64,000 nucleotides of DNA from the NCBI GenBank assembly GCA_963677745.1, contig OY782391.1, forward strand, positions 64,001 to 128,000. The letters are read 5' to 3'. Below the pieces are notes generated by a model. It ran no database searches and was not told the origin of the DNA. It saw only the letters and a list, made by a program, of their open reading frames with translations. Each line of letters opens with the position of its first letter. Positions within the stretch are counted from its first letter, which is position 1. This DNA comes from Candidatus Altimarinota bacterium. GTDB lineage: Bacteria > Patescibacteriota > Gracilibacteria > UBA1369. Of this stretch, positions 30,687 through 61,500 are shown piece after piece. A program made the translations under genes and the position numbers.

Positions 30687-30762
30687 GGGCCCTTAGCTCA
30701 GCTGGTAGAGCGCGGCATTCGCATTGCCGAGGTCGGGAGTTCGAGTCTCCTAGGGTCCACCA
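30687..30762 (+). tRNA. tRNA-Ala (anticodon CGC)
   Basis: Cloverleaf, G3-U70 pair, anticodon loop TT-CGC-AT, GTTCGA T-loop, encoded CCA. Confidence 0.97.
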
Positions 30763-33782: not shown

Positions 33783-34547
33783 GTGGCTAAAACAGAACAA
33801 ATGGCTAAAGATAAAGATCAAAACCCGGGATACCTGATCAATTACCTGGAAAAAAAACTACAGGGAAGCCGTCTAAACTACGGGCAACAGAAAAAACTGC
33901 TTCTGGCCGCCGATATATCATTGAATGTAATAATTGTGGTGGTATTGGTGGTATTGATGAGAACTTTTATCATGACTCCTTTTCAGGTCTATGGCATTTC
34001 AATGTGTAACACACTTAATTACATTAATGATAAGTGCCAGGATGGTTATGGAGACTACATAATTATCAATAAAAGCTCATATCTGCGCCTGCCCGGCTGG
34101 ACCGTCGGTACTCCCCAGCGTGGTGATATCATTGTTTTCCGCCCACCGCACAACAATCATGAGTTTTACATAAAAAGAGTAATCGGGCTTCCCGGAGAAA
34201 CGGTCAAACTGATTGACGGTTATGTTTACATTTTTAGCGATAAATATCCTCAGGGCATCAAACTGGATGAGCCATACCTGTCAGATGATAATAATGGCAG
34301 TACCTTTGCCACCGGCGGAATTAATGAATTTACTGTCCCGGCAGATCAATATTTTGTGCTGGGAGATAATCGCAAACGCAGTTCCGATTCCAGACTTTGT
34401 TTCAAGGAAAGCTCCGCCAGCCCCAATTGCGGTGAAAAAGGAGCGTCTTCTTTTCTGACCATGGACAACATTGAAGGAAAAGCAGCTCTCGTTTTATGGC
34501 CCAGACCCGAAATAATCTACAGTCACGAGTATCCCCAAACGGTCTAG
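33783..34547 (+). CDS. lepB: Signal peptidase I
   Basis: GISM, RGDIIVF, YIKRVIGLPGE, GDNR..S.DSR. Confidence 0.95.
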   Translation: MAKTEQMAKDKDQNPGYLINYLEKKLQGSRLNYGQQKKLLLAADISLNVIIVVVLVVLMRTFIMTPFQVYGISMCNTLNYINDKCQDGYGDYIIINKSSYLRLPGWTVGTPQRGDIIVFRPPHNNHEFYIKRVIGLPGETVKLIDGYVYIFSDKYPQGIKLDEPYLSDDNNGSTFATGGINEFTVPADQYFVLGDNRKRSSDSRLCFKESSASPNCGEKGASSFLTMDNIEGKAALVLWPRPEIIYSHEYPQTV

Positions 34548-34670: not shown

Positions 34671-34699
34671 TTGACAAAACCTCGGTTTGTTGGTAAGTT
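34671..34699 (+). promoter_or_regulatory. Sigma70 promoter of GC-rich cassette
   Basis: TTGACA-17-TAAGTT with extended TG. Confidence 0.65.
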
Positions 34700-34733
34700 G
34701 ATACCTTCTAAAAAATTGCTGTTACTGTTTAGC

Positions 34734-35040
34734 GCTCATTGAAAAACAGGGAAAGCAGAGAGTAAATTGCCTAAACTTGCAATCGAATGCCAGTTCATGT
34801 AACGACACCATCCCTCCCCAAAGTAAGATGTTGTTTCCTGGCGTTCCGTTGTCTTTAGGCAGTTAGCCTCTCTGTTTTCGTCACTGCGGCTCACACTTCT
34901 GTGCTGCCGCAATTTCATAAGTTAAGTCCGTCCTGGACTCTCATAGTCGGACGGATTGCATGTTTCTGGGAAGTGAGCCCACGGCTTTACACCCACCAAA
35001 GACTCAAGCCCGCCTCCTCCGGCGGTACAATAGGAGGACA
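34734..35040 (+). ncRNA. Structured 5' leader RNA of unknown class
   Basis: boxA-like GCTCATTGAAAA; rod 34751-34879; hairpins 34885-34911, 34925-34957, 35010-35025. Confidence 0.55.
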
Positions 35041-35066
35041 ATGTGCATGCCGAGGAGGATAACACG

Positions 35067-36053
35067 ATGACGCAATCCAATTTTGGACCCGGAATGTTCG
35101 GACAACCTCAACCTACTGCCCAGGTTCAGCCTGGCCTGCCCGTGCCCCCTGCGCCACCCGCACCGCAACCGCAGCCCACGTTCGGAGGCCCGCCTGCGCC
35201 TACTGCGCAGCAGGCGGTGGGGCAGCCTCTGCCTCAGATTGCTCCCCCCGCCGGTCCGGTTCAACCCGGCCAGCAGGGTGGACAGCAGTTCGCGCAGCAG
35301 CCCGGCCAGCCTCAGCCGCAGTACCAGCCGCCCCCGCGGGCACGCAGCCGCCTGGGCTGGCTGATGGCGCTGTTGGCATTGATTGGCGCGGCCATCGTGG
35401 CGGCCATCATGCTCGGGCCGGGATGCAATTCTGCTCCCCCGCCCCCGCCCGGACCGTCCACGCCGCCGTCAGCCTACCTGACTGAGCCAGAGGCGGTGGG
35501 AAGCTCCCTGTGCCAGACCGTCCTTGCCGGAAAGCAGGCGGTCAACTGGTACATGGTCTTCACCTCGCTCGAGGCTCGCCAGACCTACGCAGCACGTCTG
35601 TGCGTAGGACCTGGGGGACGCTTCCAGGTGGCCGACAACGCCAAGATCGTCGGGCAGAGCGTGTACATCCGCGAAGGCGGGCACGACTCTGTCGGCACGA
35701 TCGACACGAAGTACAAGCTGAGCGACGCGTTCGCTGGGAAGCTGTACGCCCGTGTGGTGGGCAAGGACGGTTCGCAGTTCGGGTTCGCCAACCCTCTGCT
35801 GGTGTACGTCGAGAGCGGCAATGCCTTCGACGACTGCAGCCAGTACAAGGGCATGACGGAGCCGGCCGCCGATGACATGGTGGCCTGGCAGATCTGGTGG
35901 CGCTGCAACTTCGGGGACCGCAAGGGCCCCAAGGGAGACCGTGGCCCCGCCGGACCCCGAGGTCCGAAGGGAGATACGGGCCCCCAGGGTTCCGCGGCTC
36001 CTTCGGCCCTGCCGCCGATTGCCCCTGTGGATGTCGACACCAACTCGCCGTAA
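35067..36053 (+). CDS. GC-rich Pro/Gln-rich single-TM protein with short collagen-like repeat
   Basis: AGGAGG 8 nt before ATG 35067; TM WLMALLALIGAAIVAAIML; GPKGDRGPAGPRGPKGDTGPQG. Confidence 0.8.
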   Translation: MTQSNFGPGMFGQPQPTAQVQPGLPVPPAPPAPQPQPTFGGPPAPTAQQAVGQPLPQIAPPAGPVQPGQQGGQQFAQQPGQPQPQYQPPPRARSRLGWLMALLALIGAAIVAAIMLGPGCNSAPPPPPGPSTPPSAYLTEPEAVGSSLCQTVLAGKQAVNWYMVFTSLEARQTYAARLCVGPGGRFQVADNAKIVGQSVYIREGGHDSVGTIDTKYKLSDAFAGKLYARVVGKDGSQFGFANPLLVYVESGNAFDDCSQYKGMTEPAADDMVAWQIWWRCNFGDRKGPKGDRGPAGPRGPKGDTGPQGSAAPSALPPIAPVDVDTNSP

Positions 36054-36265
36054 GGCAGAAGGTGCACGCACAGTCCACCCGGGCACACTTACCGACATCA
36101 ACTCGCCGCAAGGCTCGCAGATGATGTCCAAAACTCACGGGGGCGCGGTGTAGCGGCAAGCGCGAACCTCCCCCCATGCGGCCCGTCTACGCCGCGTCCC
36201 CGTGACTATCTCAATTCAGCTACCCGCCCCCCGAAAGGAGGCAATGACGAAAACAGAAGAGGAAT
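36027..36265 (+). ncRNA. Structured 3' trailer RNA
   Basis: Tandem GNRA hairpins, 19-bp stem 36135-36205, segment complementary to the 5' leader. Confidence 0.5.
36036..36114 (+). repeat. 21-nt direct repeat (19/21 identical)
   Basis: GACACCAACTCGCCGTAAGGC (36036-36056) and GACATCAACTCGCCGCAAGGC (36094-36114). Confidence 0.8.
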
Positions 36266-36266
36266 A

Positions 36267-36306
36267 GCCCCAGGTCTACCGCATGGTATGACCCGGGGTT
36301 TTCCTT
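36267..36306 (+). terminator. Intrinsic terminator-like hairpin
   Basis: GCCCC-A-GGTC-TACC-GCAT-GGTA-T-GACC-C-GGGGT followed by TTTCCTT. Confidence 0.55.
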
Positions 36307-36356: not shown

Positions 36357-36728
36357 TCAGTCCTTGGCCACCAGATAAAATTCAATCATTGTTACCGCTG
36401 CGATCAAAAGCAGTCCCGACCACCAGGTCAAAACTCCCAACAACTGAAACAGCAGGCATCCCAGCGTAATCAATGTCAGTAAAATCCCCTGCCTCAGTGA
36501 GACATTAATATGATCGTAATATATTTCATTTTTATTGAACCAGACCCTTATATAAAAACCGACAATCGTAAAGGTGCAGGTTAACGCAAAAAACAGACTG
36601 ATGAAAAACATCGCCAGTGCCAAGCCGGTGGAAGCCCAAACATCCAGTTTATCAATCACCAGATAAAAGGCCAGCCAGCTGATCAGCGCGGCCACTCCAA
36701 TTATCAAGATGTATCTTTGGTGTGTCAT
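36357..36728 (-). CDS. Four-TM membrane protein
   Basis: Hydrophobic, SLRQG motif. Confidence 0.75.
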   Translation of the reverse strand: MTHQRYILIIGVAALISWLAFYLVIDKLDVWASTGLALAMFFISLFFALTCTFTIVGFYIRVWFNKNEIYYDHINVSLRQGILLTLITLGCLLFQLLGVLTWWSGLLLIAAVTMIEFYLVAKD

Positions 36729-58500: not shown

Positions 58501-61500
58501 ACCTTTCCGCGGGCGATTGAAACCATTAATGCCAGACGCTGTTTTTCCACTTTTTCTTCTTCAAAAGAAATCAGATCCACACGTGTTTTATCTTTTGTCT
58601 TCGGATTGGTCAGCCCATATTCGGAAAGGTCGTTTCTTCTGATTGCATCTGCCAAAGCCGTAGCCAGCTGATCGGGGGAAGGATTGGGAGTGTTAATAGC
58701 CGAATCGATCGCTCCCTGTAAATCCGTGGCACTTTTCTTCTGATATAATGACCCGCTGGCCTCCATTCTTTGTTCAAAGGTACCTTTGCGCGCTCCTCGT
58801 GGCGTCATTTCACCTTCCCGCTCATATTGCAATGCTTGCCGGCGTTCTTTTTGGGCCTTTGATCTAAGCGTTTCCTTGTTCTTTCTGAACCAGCCAAAAC
58901 CCGCGCCCAATATTGCTCCGGATGCGATGCCGGCTATTACCGGTGCCATTGACGGTGCGGCTAATGCTCCAATAGTTGCCAGTGCGCCGATTCTTACAGC
59001 ATGGCTGGTAAGAATTTGAGTACCAATGTTGGCCAGTCCATAACCCATAATTGAAACCGTCGCCGGGGAAAGGAATCGTCCTAGAAACTTGTTTCTCTGA
59101 AGAGATTCGATAAATTTTCTGCTGTATTTATCTACTCTGGTTTGATCCTTAACTTCCGTTTTCACATCTACATTTCTGGCCTTACCAAAAACAATGCGGA
59201 AAGTGTCTGCAGCATTCGACATATCCAGATTAATCAGTCCCTGTCTGTGTGCTTCCAGTTTATCCAGAAGACCATTTCTTTGTTCAACTGGAATATTTTG
59301 TTTCCCTGTTTCCTGTTCCATAAAAGCCACCAATTCCATGCTATCTGCTGACTTAACTCCTCTCAACATAGGCATAACTTCAGCCTTGAATCTCTGCCTG
59401 AAGTTGGTCTTATATGCGTCAACAGAATTCGGGGGCTGCGCAACATATTCATCGCATAATTCTTTAATTTTTTGCTGCAATTGAACGTTGGCCCGCTTAT
59501 CCAAAAGATCATGAGCCTCATCAGTCAGGTAAGTAGCATTTTTTTCAGACCAGGATATTCCGAAGCGCTCGGCAATAGCATCCAGTTCCCCCTCCAGATT
59601 TACCTCCTGTCCGGGCTTGGGAGTTTCTCCGGACCAGTCCCCGGGCTTTACTTTTGCTCTACCGCCGGGTTGTGCCGAAATGTTCATCAGTTCCGATCGG
59701 TATTTGTGATCGGTCTTCAGTCTCTGCAAAATTTCTTCGAAATACTGTTTCCGATAAGCTTCCATTGCATTTCTTTTCCACCATTTTGCGGCCCACTTGT
59801 CGATGCTGATAAATCTCTTCCAGCCGGGTCTGGTGAGCTGCTCCATTTCCTGATCCAGACGTTCATTGGCCAGTCTTTCCGCCACCCGTCTTAATTTCTC
59901 GTCTATGTCAACAACGACGATTTCCAGTTTTTTTGTCGGAACATTACGCGGAGGGAGAGTCGGTTGTGTCGGGGCGGTAGGACCTGTGGGCAGAGTGGGA
60001 CCCGTGGGCTGTGTGGGACCGGTTGGTAATGTCGGGCCGGTTGGTTGTGTAGGGAGTGTCGGTCCTGTTGGTTGAGTCGGACCGGTTGGTAATGTCGGGC
60101 CGGTTGGTTGTGTAGGAGTTGTTGGTCCTGTGGGCTGTGTCGGACCTGTTGGTGCAGTTGGAGTAGTAGGACCTGTGGGCAGAGTGGGACCCGTGGGCTG
60201 TGTGGGACCCGTTGGTTGCGTAGGGGTTGTTGGGCCTGTCGGCTGAGTGGGGCCAGTTGGCTGTGTAGGTGTTGTCGGACCTGTAGGCTGAGTTGGGCCG
60301 GTTGGTTGTGTCGGACCTGTTGGTTGCGTAGGGGTTGTTGGGCCTGTTGGCTGTGTAGGTGTGGTTGGTCCTGTCGGCTGTGTCGGACCTGTTGGTGCAG
60401 TTGGAGTAGTAGGACCGGTTGGAACGGTCGGTCCAGTGGGCTGTGTGGGGCCCGTTGGTTGCGTAGGGGTTGTTGGGCCTGTTGGCTGAGTCGGACCTGT
60501 TGGTTGAGTGGGGCCCGTTGGTTGCGTTGGTGCAGTTGGAGTTGTTGGTCCTGTAGGAGCAGCCGGACCAGTAGGTTGGGTAACAATTACACCGGGAATA
60601 TTTACATTCACATGTATGTTTCCCTGCTTTACTTTCTGTTTAATTTTCTGAGGTTCCGGTTGCCTAAATTTCTTTATCTTTTTCTTAAGTTTCTTAATTT
60701 CCTTCAACAAAATTTCCATATTCGCCTGGTCTGGTGTTCCTGGAGTTGGGTTTTCTCTTCTCATCTCAGCTAAAGCCTCTTCCAGAGCCAGGATCCTTTT
60801 TCGTAACTCTTCCTTTTCATAATCATTCTGGGCAATATTTACGGTAACATTACCTCCATTAAGTGTGTTTGTGGCTGTACCGCCTGACAAACTGTTGGTA
60901 TTGGTGGTTGTTTCCGTACCTCCGGTAATCGTGTTTGTAGTTGTTTCAGCCCCTCCCGTAACAGTCGTAGTCTGGGGAGCCGCATTGGCCGTTGCCGACT
61001 GGGCTCCGGTGGTCGTGGTCTGGGAACCAGCCTTGGCTGTTGCTCTGGAGTTTCCTCCCTTAACTGCAATGTTTTGTGGCGCCTCGTTGATGGTATTTTC
61101 TATTGGTCCTGTGGAAGCACTGCTTATGCCACTTCCACCTGCTCCACCACTCACCCCCTCAACTTTTCCGCCTTCCGAGGTTGATGATGAATTTCCACCG
61201 GTTCCGCCAGTTACTCCTTCCACCTGTCCTCCTTCAGCTGTTGATGTTGAAGTGCCTCCTTCGGCAGAGGAGGTAGAAGATGATGGACCGGTCTCAGCAT
61301 TGACCGTTGATGAGAGCTCTCCACCAGTCACCTGTGTACTTTGTGAAGTATTATTTTCAGTCTGAGTAACCGTTTGTACCTGTTGATTTACAACTAATGT
61401 TTGCTGGACAACTTCATTTCTTTCGGATTTTTCAGTCTGTTCGATTTCAGTAGGCTTTTCAGCCGATGGACTCATTCTTTTTCTGTTTGTTTCAATGAAA

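Follow-up and report, generated by a model that had tools for sequence, protein, structure and literature searches.

Nus factors and leader-trailer helices are regarded as machinery of ribosomal RNA (rRNA) synthesis, and few boxA sites are known before genes. For rRNA (rrn) operons, PMC10250234 describes a boxA that, bound to NusB, remains with the polymerase and keeps the next strand of the leader available to the trailer, and a leader-trailer helix that is essential at more than 17 bp (Escherichia coli 16S) and is cut by RNase III. Here we describe a cassette in a 64,000-nucleotide stretch of the genome of a Candidatus Altimarinota bacterium (positions 64,001 to 128,000 of contig OY782391.1; hereafter the window) in which signals of this type surround the gene for a predicted membrane protein, P0001. 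Its order is conserved in related genomes: promoter, boxA-like motif, a leader hairpin formed by arms A and B, a GC-rich open reading frame (ORF) for a membrane or surface protein, a C arm, and a terminator. The presence of rRNA-type signals around GC-rich surface-protein genes suggests that these mRNAs may be transcribed and matured in an rRNA-like manner. In particular, we give somewhat better than even credence to a reading in which the transcript would be loaded with Nus factors through boxA and its 3′ end would displace the base of the leader hairpin, forming an rRNA-like leader-trailer helix.

As in an rrn leader, a boxA-type motif closely follows the putative promoter, a helix strand begins a few bases further on, and a complementary strand lies behind the enclosed RNA, which would give a helix of about 20 bp; the 16S and 23S leaders of the same genome carry the same elements. 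It differs in that it encloses a protein-coding ORF whereas rrn encloses a stable RNA, so that the cassette would work like the rrn processing helices without being one of them. Moreover, in the cassette the strand beside boxA first pairs locally, the 3′ side of the resulting hairpin would pass to the trailer, and the trailer arm abuts an intrinsic terminator.

BoxA sites before protein-coding genes (suhB, rpsJ and others) have been reported by Baniulyte et al. (2017, PMC5725501), who propose that the Nus complex loops the RNA to the polymerase. At such sites, boxA is no more than about 50 nt away from the start codon, and its effect is to repress translation and to favour termination by Rho. 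The cassette shares with them a boxA consensus in an mRNA leader, but in the window boxA stands 322 nt before the start codon, is accompanied by a hairpin and has a 3′ partner, and the genome is one in which no Rho was found. Phage lambda nut sites consist of boxA followed by the boxB hairpin, which is bound by the N protein, and the cassette has the same order of boxA, short spacer and hairpin. However, its hairpin is 5-8 times longer, is conserved at the base and not in the loop, and has a 3′ strand with a second partner; this length and the variable apical part set it outside the lambda-type nut sites, and we know of no N-like factor for it. In Staphylococcus aureus, the 3′ untranslated end of the icaR mRNA pairs with its own 5′ leader at the ribosome-binding site, giving a possible RNase III substrate. 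The 3′ end of the cassette is likewise predicted to pair with the 5′ leader of the same mRNA, but its B arm (34867-34887) lies about 180 nt 5′ of the Shine-Dalgarno-like site (35052-35059), and the pairing competes with a conserved hairpin. Finally, invertons are short inverted repeats flanking a segment tied to a surface protein; unlike these, the cassette has no nearby recombinase, a single orientation in all loci seen and covariation of the RNA type.

None of the papers listed in full-text literature searches describes boxA in combination with a leader-trailer helix that encloses a protein-coding gene, and the listed Patescibacteria papers make no mention of boxA. The parts are known, and their combination and the handover hairpin are new as far as the literature searches reach. 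What emerges is a conserved mRNA family that unites boxA, a competing leader hairpin and a covarying 5′-3′ helix set against a terminator.

Leader-Trailer Complementarity and the Competing Hairpin

The leader and trailer of the cassette share an inverted repeat of 17 nt with 94% complementarity (34871-34887 / 36241-36257), and the pairing continues as far as 34867-34887 / 36241-36262 if one C.A mismatch and one bulged A are allowed. The B arm (34867-34887, forward strand) is made of a core, CCTCTCTGTTTTC, that can pair with A or C, and an extension, GTCACTGC, that pairs with C alone, and the C arm, GCAATGACGAAAACAGAAGAGG (36241-36262, forward strand), is complementary to B plus the extension. 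In the window, B and C can form 21 pairs, interrupted by 1 mismatch and 1 bulge; in other loci the B:C helix covers from about 11 to 23 aligned positions. This complementarity had been pointed out in the initial annotation, all of whose coordinates hold. Leader against trailer scores 32, a value reached by none of 300 shuffled trailers (mean 17.4, standard deviation 1.9, maximum 26). A perfect 13-mer inverted repeat within 1.5 kb would be expected, by our estimate, about once per 64-kb window; a single match alone is therefore weak, and conservation is decisive. The leader-trailer complementarity is real and far beyond chance.

The same annotation had proposed that a local rod competes with this helix. 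The A arm, GAAAGCAGAGAG (34751-34762, forward strand), whose sequence resembles that of the C arm, provides the 5′ strand of the hairpin base and pairs with CTCTCTGTTTTC (34868-34879), with inner stems above. The whole leader hairpin (34751-34879, forward strand) comprises the A:B base helix, a small internal loop, a conserved second helix (AATTGCC / GGCAGTT) and a variable apical part. Its folding energy is -52.5 kcal/mol (z = -7.85), a value equalled by none of 200 shuffles and 9 kcal/mol better than that of the antisense strand (-43.1 kcal/mol, z = -4.24). Since A:B and B:C both use the B core, the two pairings are mutually exclusive, as the annotation had it. When both conformers were folded, the B:C duplex reached -31.5 kcal/mol against -19.0 for the A:B base stem, and leader and trailer cofolded at -103.7 kcal/mol, compared with -61.5 (leader) and -31.9 (trailer) apart, in a structure that retains the inner rod while B:C forms. 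Thermodynamics favour B:C once the C arm is present.

Sequence changes among relatives respect the hairpin. When six leaders are aligned with MAFFT, paired cells make up 95.5% of the total and double-sided changes occur in 5 of 22 pairs; the sense strand has many U.G pairs (five of the six leaders have UG at column pair 50-145). Among 28 matches aligned to the covariance model described below, 91.7% of cells are paired and double changes occur in 15 of the 22 pairs, with none of 500 shuffles as high, in an alignment that was fitted to the model and so leans to it, and that includes three rows which are weak reverse-strand matches of the same hairpins. Judged from folding and covariation, the hairpin is a sense-strand RNA structure, and the covariation implies that the A arm must be transcribed. 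Across loci the hairpin measures 75-130 nt, and its apical part differs in both length and sequence, which makes a ligand-binding aptamer less likely, and likewise a small RNA that acts through its sequence. The B core, which fits both A and C, is nearly invariant, and the parts with a single partner (the second helix and the extension) covary freely, as expected if both pairings matter.

The same conservation can be read as a nut-like site, where the hairpin base would bind a lineage-specific antiterminator or chaperone and the C arm would dismantle the complex so that the terminator works. The order boxA, spacer, hairpin is found in all loci, the sequences of helices 1 and 2 are conserved beyond pairing needs, and the C arm stands directly before the terminator, all of which would suit such a site. 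On the other hand, a hairpin of this length with an unconserved loop is unlike boxB, the triple constraint on B suffices to explain the invariant core, and no candidate factor was identified, although no search for an N-like factor was made. We regard this as quite improbable, and a handover of B from A to C as the better account of the invariant core.

Conservation across Related Genomes

A pattern describing the strands of the hairpin base, and not containing boxA, found matches in 6 of 36 genomes of the window's family, and its reversed control in none. In all six of these seed loci the best complement of the B arm plus extension lies 808-1373 nt downstream, so that the complementarity noticed in the window is present in homologous cassettes. 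The extensions are specific to each locus and yet complementary, namely CGTCACTGC/GCAATGACG, GTCTCA/TGAGAC, GCTT/AAGC, TCACC-AAC/GTTAGGTGA, CTAAGC/GCTTAG and TAGATTCAC/GTGAATCGA, which is to say that the extension covaries. The enclosed genes of the six loci are richer in GC than their flanks (0.65/0.41, 0.66/0.41, 0.52/0.29, 0.575/0.48, 0.566/0.40 and 0.58/0.40).

A covariance model of the leader, R1, was built from six sequences. Of 151 genomes sampled from the order, 17 were matched, including 13 of 22 in the window's family, with three weak matches elsewhere; within the family as a whole, R1 recognized 23 of 36 genomes and 14 of 25 genera (33 matches, at most 4 per genome). No R1 match occurred in 572 kb of unrelated genomes, nor among the 8 stretches that three hairpin patterns retrieved from viral contigs. 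A looser pattern of boxA plus A arm was set aside as chance, as it returned at least 120 stretches in unrelated taxa and none of the 80 listed match R1. Rfam, also searched, has no family for the element: at the gathering score the 64-kb window yielded only a tRNA at 30687, the region itself at E <=5 gave chance-level rows only, and 20 related loci had no match. The leader looks like a new structured RNA motif, one that is missing from annotation pipelines.

The trailer partner was evaluated by taking, for 24 model matches and with no selection, the best downstream complement of B plus extension, which beats all 100 shuffles in 12 of them. A set of 20 loci, made of 19 of the 24 matches and the same-genus locus G002, was then compared with G.U-tolerant energies: the mean B:C duplex energy is -26.9 kcal/mol when the arms are cognate and -17.6 when they are not, and the cognate C ranks first in 10 of the 20 loci and in the top three in 16, most near-misses being due to orthologous cassettes that share extensions. 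In 15 of the 20 loci a hairpin of -10 kcal/mol or lower with a T-rich tail follows 14-38 nt after the start of the C arm, by a crude automatic test some of whose misses look like terminators by eye.

Between B and C, the 19 loci with listed ORFs encode membrane or secreted proteins of several unrelated kinds. The first is the P0001 type, with a disordered N-terminus, one transmembrane (TM)-like helix and a Cys-containing ectodomain; the others are lipoprotein-like proteins whose C-terminal part is multi-pass, small proteins with a single membrane pass, and acidic disordered proteins. The GC content at third codon positions (GC3) of the family cargo ORFs taken as real is 0.59-0.92. The cassette also flags a regulon of GC-rich envelope proteins, in a lineage that is poorly understood and probably depends on a host.

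Inverted repeats of 17-22 bp that flank a whole gene, with surface-protein cargo of the kind typical of phase variation, might also suggest a DNA switch, B and C being the sites at which a site-specific recombinase flips the gene; recombination, too, would keep the repeats matched. We consider this very improbable. The ORF is in the sense orientation relative to the leader in 19 of 19 listed loci and in G002, and contigs from four runs (two studies) span both repeats in the reference orientation with no joint, although the source of the assembly itself may be among these contigs, and rare variants are lost in contigs. By Pfam, no recombinase lies among the 8 neighbouring genes. A switch also leaves the boxA, the sense-strand U.G covariation, the conserved bulge and the adjacency of the terminator unexplained.

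The distribution of the cassette bears on a further alternative, that the direct repeats A and C and the inverted B are the ends of a mobile cassette, left by or used for insertion. At the site between lepB and a TM-protein gene, which was compared in 30 genomes (loci L187-L216), many genomes have an R1 cassette with GC-rich cargo, five (G011, G008, G041, G046 and G021) are empty, with 50-276 nt from one gene to the other, and six (G016, G047, G019, G005, G044 and G013) have other genes that are not GC-rich; the cassette is thus accessory. Such presence and absence, the occurrence of two to four cassettes at different places in some genomes and a cargo that is GC-rich relative to its flanks would fit mobility. 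However, the promoter and boxA lie outside the A...C interval and are nonetheless missing from the empty sites, so that A and C are not insertion ends. The viral contigs retrieved by pattern contain no R1 match, and the cargo at the syntenic site is homologous across genera (22-40% identity), which fits long residence and argues against a mobile cassette. This explanation is in our opinion highly unlikely. The possibility that the A and C arms are a target-site duplication finds no support at the empty sites, which have no copy of the core.

Putative Promoter and boxA-Like Motif

A putative sigma-70 promoter was read by eye at 34671-34699 (forward strand), with TTGACA (34671-34676), a 17-nt spacer and TAAGTT (34694-34699), and a predicted transcript start near 34706; a consensus scan does not list it because its -10 element fits 3 of 6 positions only. 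A TTGAC[AT]-N16-18-T[AT]nnnT pattern is found 36-88 nt 5′ of the model match in 14 of 25 related leaders. With the terminator-like hairpin at 36268-36303, this promoter would give a transcript of about 1.6 kb that contains both the leader and the trailer strand.

Downstream of the promoter and just 5′ of the A arm lies the motif GCTCATTGAAAA (34734-34745, forward strand), identified as boxA-like in the initial annotation and supported by its consensus match and its conservation. The search consensus given for gamma-proteobacteria by Baniulyte et al. (PMC5725501) is GYTCTTTAANA. The window motif, GCTCATTGAAA, has 2 mismatches to this strict form and 1 to the broader GYTCTTTRAMA. All six seed loci, which had been retrieved with the hairpin-only pattern, match GYTCTTTRAMA with no more than 2 mismatches at a distance of 4-13 nt before the A arm; the background probability of such a match in a 30-nt window is 0.03, and 0.003 if no more than 1 mismatch is allowed. 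Over 25 leaders the mismatches are 0 in 7, 1 in 9, 2 in 7 and more in 2, so that 16 of the 25 have at most one, counts that lean towards the motif as the covariance model contained boxA columns. Two leaders carry exactly GCTCTTTAACA.

The motif also resembles the boxA of the lineage's own rRNA genes. The 16S leader of the same genome has GGTCATTAACA, identical to the window boxA at 8 of 11 positions and sharing the same unusual A at position 5, while the motif of the 23S leader, ACGTTAAAAAT, is weaker. In relatives, the rrn boxA reads GTTCTTTAACATC and the cassette motifs GCTCTTTGACA and GTTCTTTGACA. The motif is thus supported as a conserved boxA-like element and a putative NusB/NusE site.

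The RNA structures could nevertheless serve without Nus factors, as a device for mRNA stability or translation in which the ends are locked against exonucleases or a regulator binds the hairpin or the A arm once it is free. We hold this to be rather unlikely, and equally so its corollary, that the boxA-like motif would be a second -35 box or the site of another protein. All the support for the RNA structures applies equally to such a device, the motif contains TTGAAA or TTGACA, a promoter scan lists TTGAAA-18-TAAATT at 34739-34768, and Rho was not found in the closed genome. Conservation, however, reaches 5′ of the TTGA core into GYTC, which is like boxA and unlike a -35 box, the distance to the -10-like hexamer varies, and this hexamer is GGACTT in several loci. 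A transcript starting from such a promoter would begin inside the hairpin and leave the A arm untranscribed, contradicting the covariation. In addition, the motif matches the rrn boxA of the lineage, which likewise stands just 5′ of a helix strand. The involvement of Nus factors through boxA is for these reasons the reading that we retain.

Nus Factors, RNase III and the rRNA Genes of the Lineage

The initial annotation had compared the whole arrangement to an rRNA precursor, and this likeness stands: leader-trailer pairing and hairpin are conserved with covariation, and the genome encodes both NusB and RNase III. Here nusB (G000:C1:1178033-1178404) and rnc (1178541-1178930) lie on the same strand 137 nt apart, with rnc as the next gene downstream, an adjacency that is suggestive for a lineage with boxA and leader-trailer helices on mRNAs. 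A model of the Rho RNA-binding domain had no match in the window's closed genome, and a full-length rho model, for which the cut-off is 509 bits, scored no more than 45.7 bits, in loci resembling other ATPases.

The genome's own 16S (G000:C1:144335-145832) and 23S (136623-139636) genes are unlinked. Each has a TTGAC-type promoter, a boxA-like motif and its own leader-trailer helix, and a terminator and tRNA genes lie 3′ of the 16S gene. In relatives, GTTCTTTAACATC stands directly 5′ of the 16S leader strand, which pairs with a trailer behind the 16S gene, as seen in two leaders, one of them read by eye from the reverse strand. In G051, the 16S trailer strand (L049), CTAGATCTCTCTCTACTAC, and the B region of a cassette (G051:C1:595208), GCAGATCTCCTCTCTG, share AGATCTC-TCTCT, which may be chance or a common recognition feature.

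The cassette is one of four strongly GC-rich islands of the window's genome (0.63-0.64, at least 1.5 kb). The three others (511618-516180, 849982-852710 and 1306948-1311748) encode large secreted Cys-rich proteins. A GYTC[ACT]TTRA[AC] motif follows a TTGACA promoter in the sense leader of three of the four islands, the cassette included, with an estimated chance of about 0.009 per island. In the two other islands the boxA-like motifs, GCTCTTTGAAC and GCTCCTTGAAA, are followed by a different hairpin. The R1 hairpin and leader-trailer match are absent from the three other islands; island 2 has a weak match between leader and terminator tail, reached by 2 of 300 shuffles.

A Proposed Route of Transcription and Maturation

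The elements described above can be joined in a mechanism. The promoter would start an RNA of about 1.6 kb whose leader provides a boxA-type NusB/NusE site and, a few bases later, the A arm, which would pair with B about 100 nt further on and close the long hairpin. The Nus-loaded polymerase could then transcribe the GC-rich surface-protein gene without a closely trailing ribosome. Just before the terminator the C arm would emerge and, as it fits both the B core and the extension, which would act as a toehold, would displace A, so that leader and trailer would close a helix of about 20 bp around the coding region, as they do in pre-rRNA; a boxA tethered to the polymerase would hold B near the emerging C. 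The closed RNA might then be cut by RNase III or protected at its ends, resetting of the polymerase for termination and circularisation being further options. Nus binding, strand exchange in vivo and the use of the closed helix are steps that we infer. The benefit would lie in pause-resistant, ribosome-independent transcription of a gene rich in GC and in Pro codons, combined with long-range RNA pairing; as Rho was not found, it would not lie in protection from Rho.

A more complete version, in which a protein-coding RNA is matured through the rRNA pathway, with a hairpin held by Nus factors, a toehold exchange and excision by RNase III of an end-paired and possibly ligated mRNA, is possible but on balance doubtful. 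If true, maturation through the rRNA pathway would give this small-genome lineage, where Rho was not found, a special route for expressing surface-protein genes that are GC-rich and evolve fast.

Several observations weigh against the proposed mechanism. Five of 25 model matches were dropped: the contig of G015 ends 185 nt past the leader, the match at G014:C24 is long but gapped, and a convincing C arm is missing at G045, G157 and G014:C17. Eight of 19 C arms fail to beat shuffles by Watson-Crick score; these are shorter, contain G.U and rest on G.U-tolerant energies and position. Mismatch types in B:C fit the plus strand in 12 cases and the minus strand in 7, which leaves the strand of this helix not settled. 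As for boxA, the 25-leader counts have the lean stated above, the consensus contains TTGACA and is readable as a -35 box, and the window motif has A at position 5 where the consensus has T. According to PMC10250234, one point change in boxA can abolish complex formation in E. coli, although the 16S leader of the window's genome has the same A. Resisting Rho, the textbook purpose of boxA, cannot be the reason for its presence where Rho was not found, and the two islands with a boxA-like leader and no helix indicate that boxA and helix are separable. Finally, the support for the mechanism ends at the sequence level.

For the reading of a Nus-loaded, end-paired transcript, the cassette would offer a natural system for testing the Nus complex as a chaperone of long-range RNA pairing outside rRNA, and for asking what role boxA has in a bacterium where Rho was not found.

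Cargo Gene, Trailer and Genomic Setting

The host genome is a single contig of 1.34 Mb, and the names attached to relatives of LepB suggest Peregrinibacteria / Patescibacteria. Within the window, GC reaches 62-73% across 1.3 kb (35000-36300), compared with about 36-47% in the flanks. The single ORF of this stretch, the cargo ORF P0001 (35067-36053, forward strand, 328 aa), has a GC content of 65-73% and a GC3 of 0.772, the fourth highest value among the genome's 620 ORFs that reach 250 aa (mean 0.537, standard deviation 0.065). A Shine-Dalgarno-like GAGGAGGA (35052-35059, forward strand), read from the sequence, lies 7 nt 5′ of its ATG at 35067. No Rfam or tRNA match falls inside the region enclosed by leader and trailer.

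P0001 has a Pro/Gln-rich N-terminus, one predicted TM-like helix (residues 96-115), a Pro-rich linker, a Cys-containing, beta-rich ectodomain and a short collagen-like G-x-y run (286-309). Pfam gave a sub-threshold collagen repeat only, PHROGs matches were restricted to the G-x-y run, and the Atlas score, 0.83, was under the useful level. The AlphaFold model has a mean predicted local distance difference test score (pLDDT) of 57.4, with the beta-rich ectodomain at about 70-80, and Foldseek found no match in the PDB at E <=0.001; no fold or family could be assigned to P0001-type proteins by these five routes. A homologue search in a large protein collection returned one true relative, P0002, the remaining matches being hits to the collagen run, and a six-frame search of 41 related genomes found a P0001 homologue in three, all adjoining lepB. 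P0001-type proteins at the lepB site share 22-40% identity across genera, with conserved cysteines. In its four homologues, the G-x-y run of P0001 is replaced by a helix-like segment (SRDD...A..R), and all five proteins finish with a conserved P..V....P tail. In run X5, the contig graph breaks within the cargo ORF at 35648 and 35891 (region 35619-35920), with side branches of unlike sequence at a depth of about 4.5-5.3 against 27-32; the sample may contain the ectodomain segment in a second, minority form.

In the trailer, an AGGAGG (36236-36241, forward strand) lies immediately 5′ of the C arm and overlaps it, and AGGAG-like motifs were read by eye in many related trailers. It precedes an ATG at 36244 and a 7-codon frame, MTKTEEE (stop at 36265-36267); since this frame is unconserved in relatives, the AGGAG motif probably acts as RNA. 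A pairing of AGGAGG with a CCUUCU at the 5′ end was considered by eye and dropped, as it would cross the B:C helix. The intrinsic-terminator-like hairpin (CCCCAGGTC...GACCCGGGG) followed by TTTT (36268-36303, forward strand; -16.3 kcal/mol) begins 28 nt after the start of the C arm; the consensus scan did not list it because its loop is above the limit of that scan.

The 5′ neighbour of the cassette is lepB (Peptidase_S26; 33783-34547), and the 3′ neighbour a conserved small membrane-protein gene on the opposite strand (36357-36728), followed by a UDG-family gene. Over the 8 neighbouring genes (31.2-39.4 kb), Pfam assigned GatB, S26 peptidase, UDG and DHH/DHHA1, with four genes left without a family. 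Elsewhere in the window, the bin at 60001-61000 is far from its neighbouring bins in composition, with a GC content of 0.53, a GC skew of +0.28 and an AT skew of -0.44.

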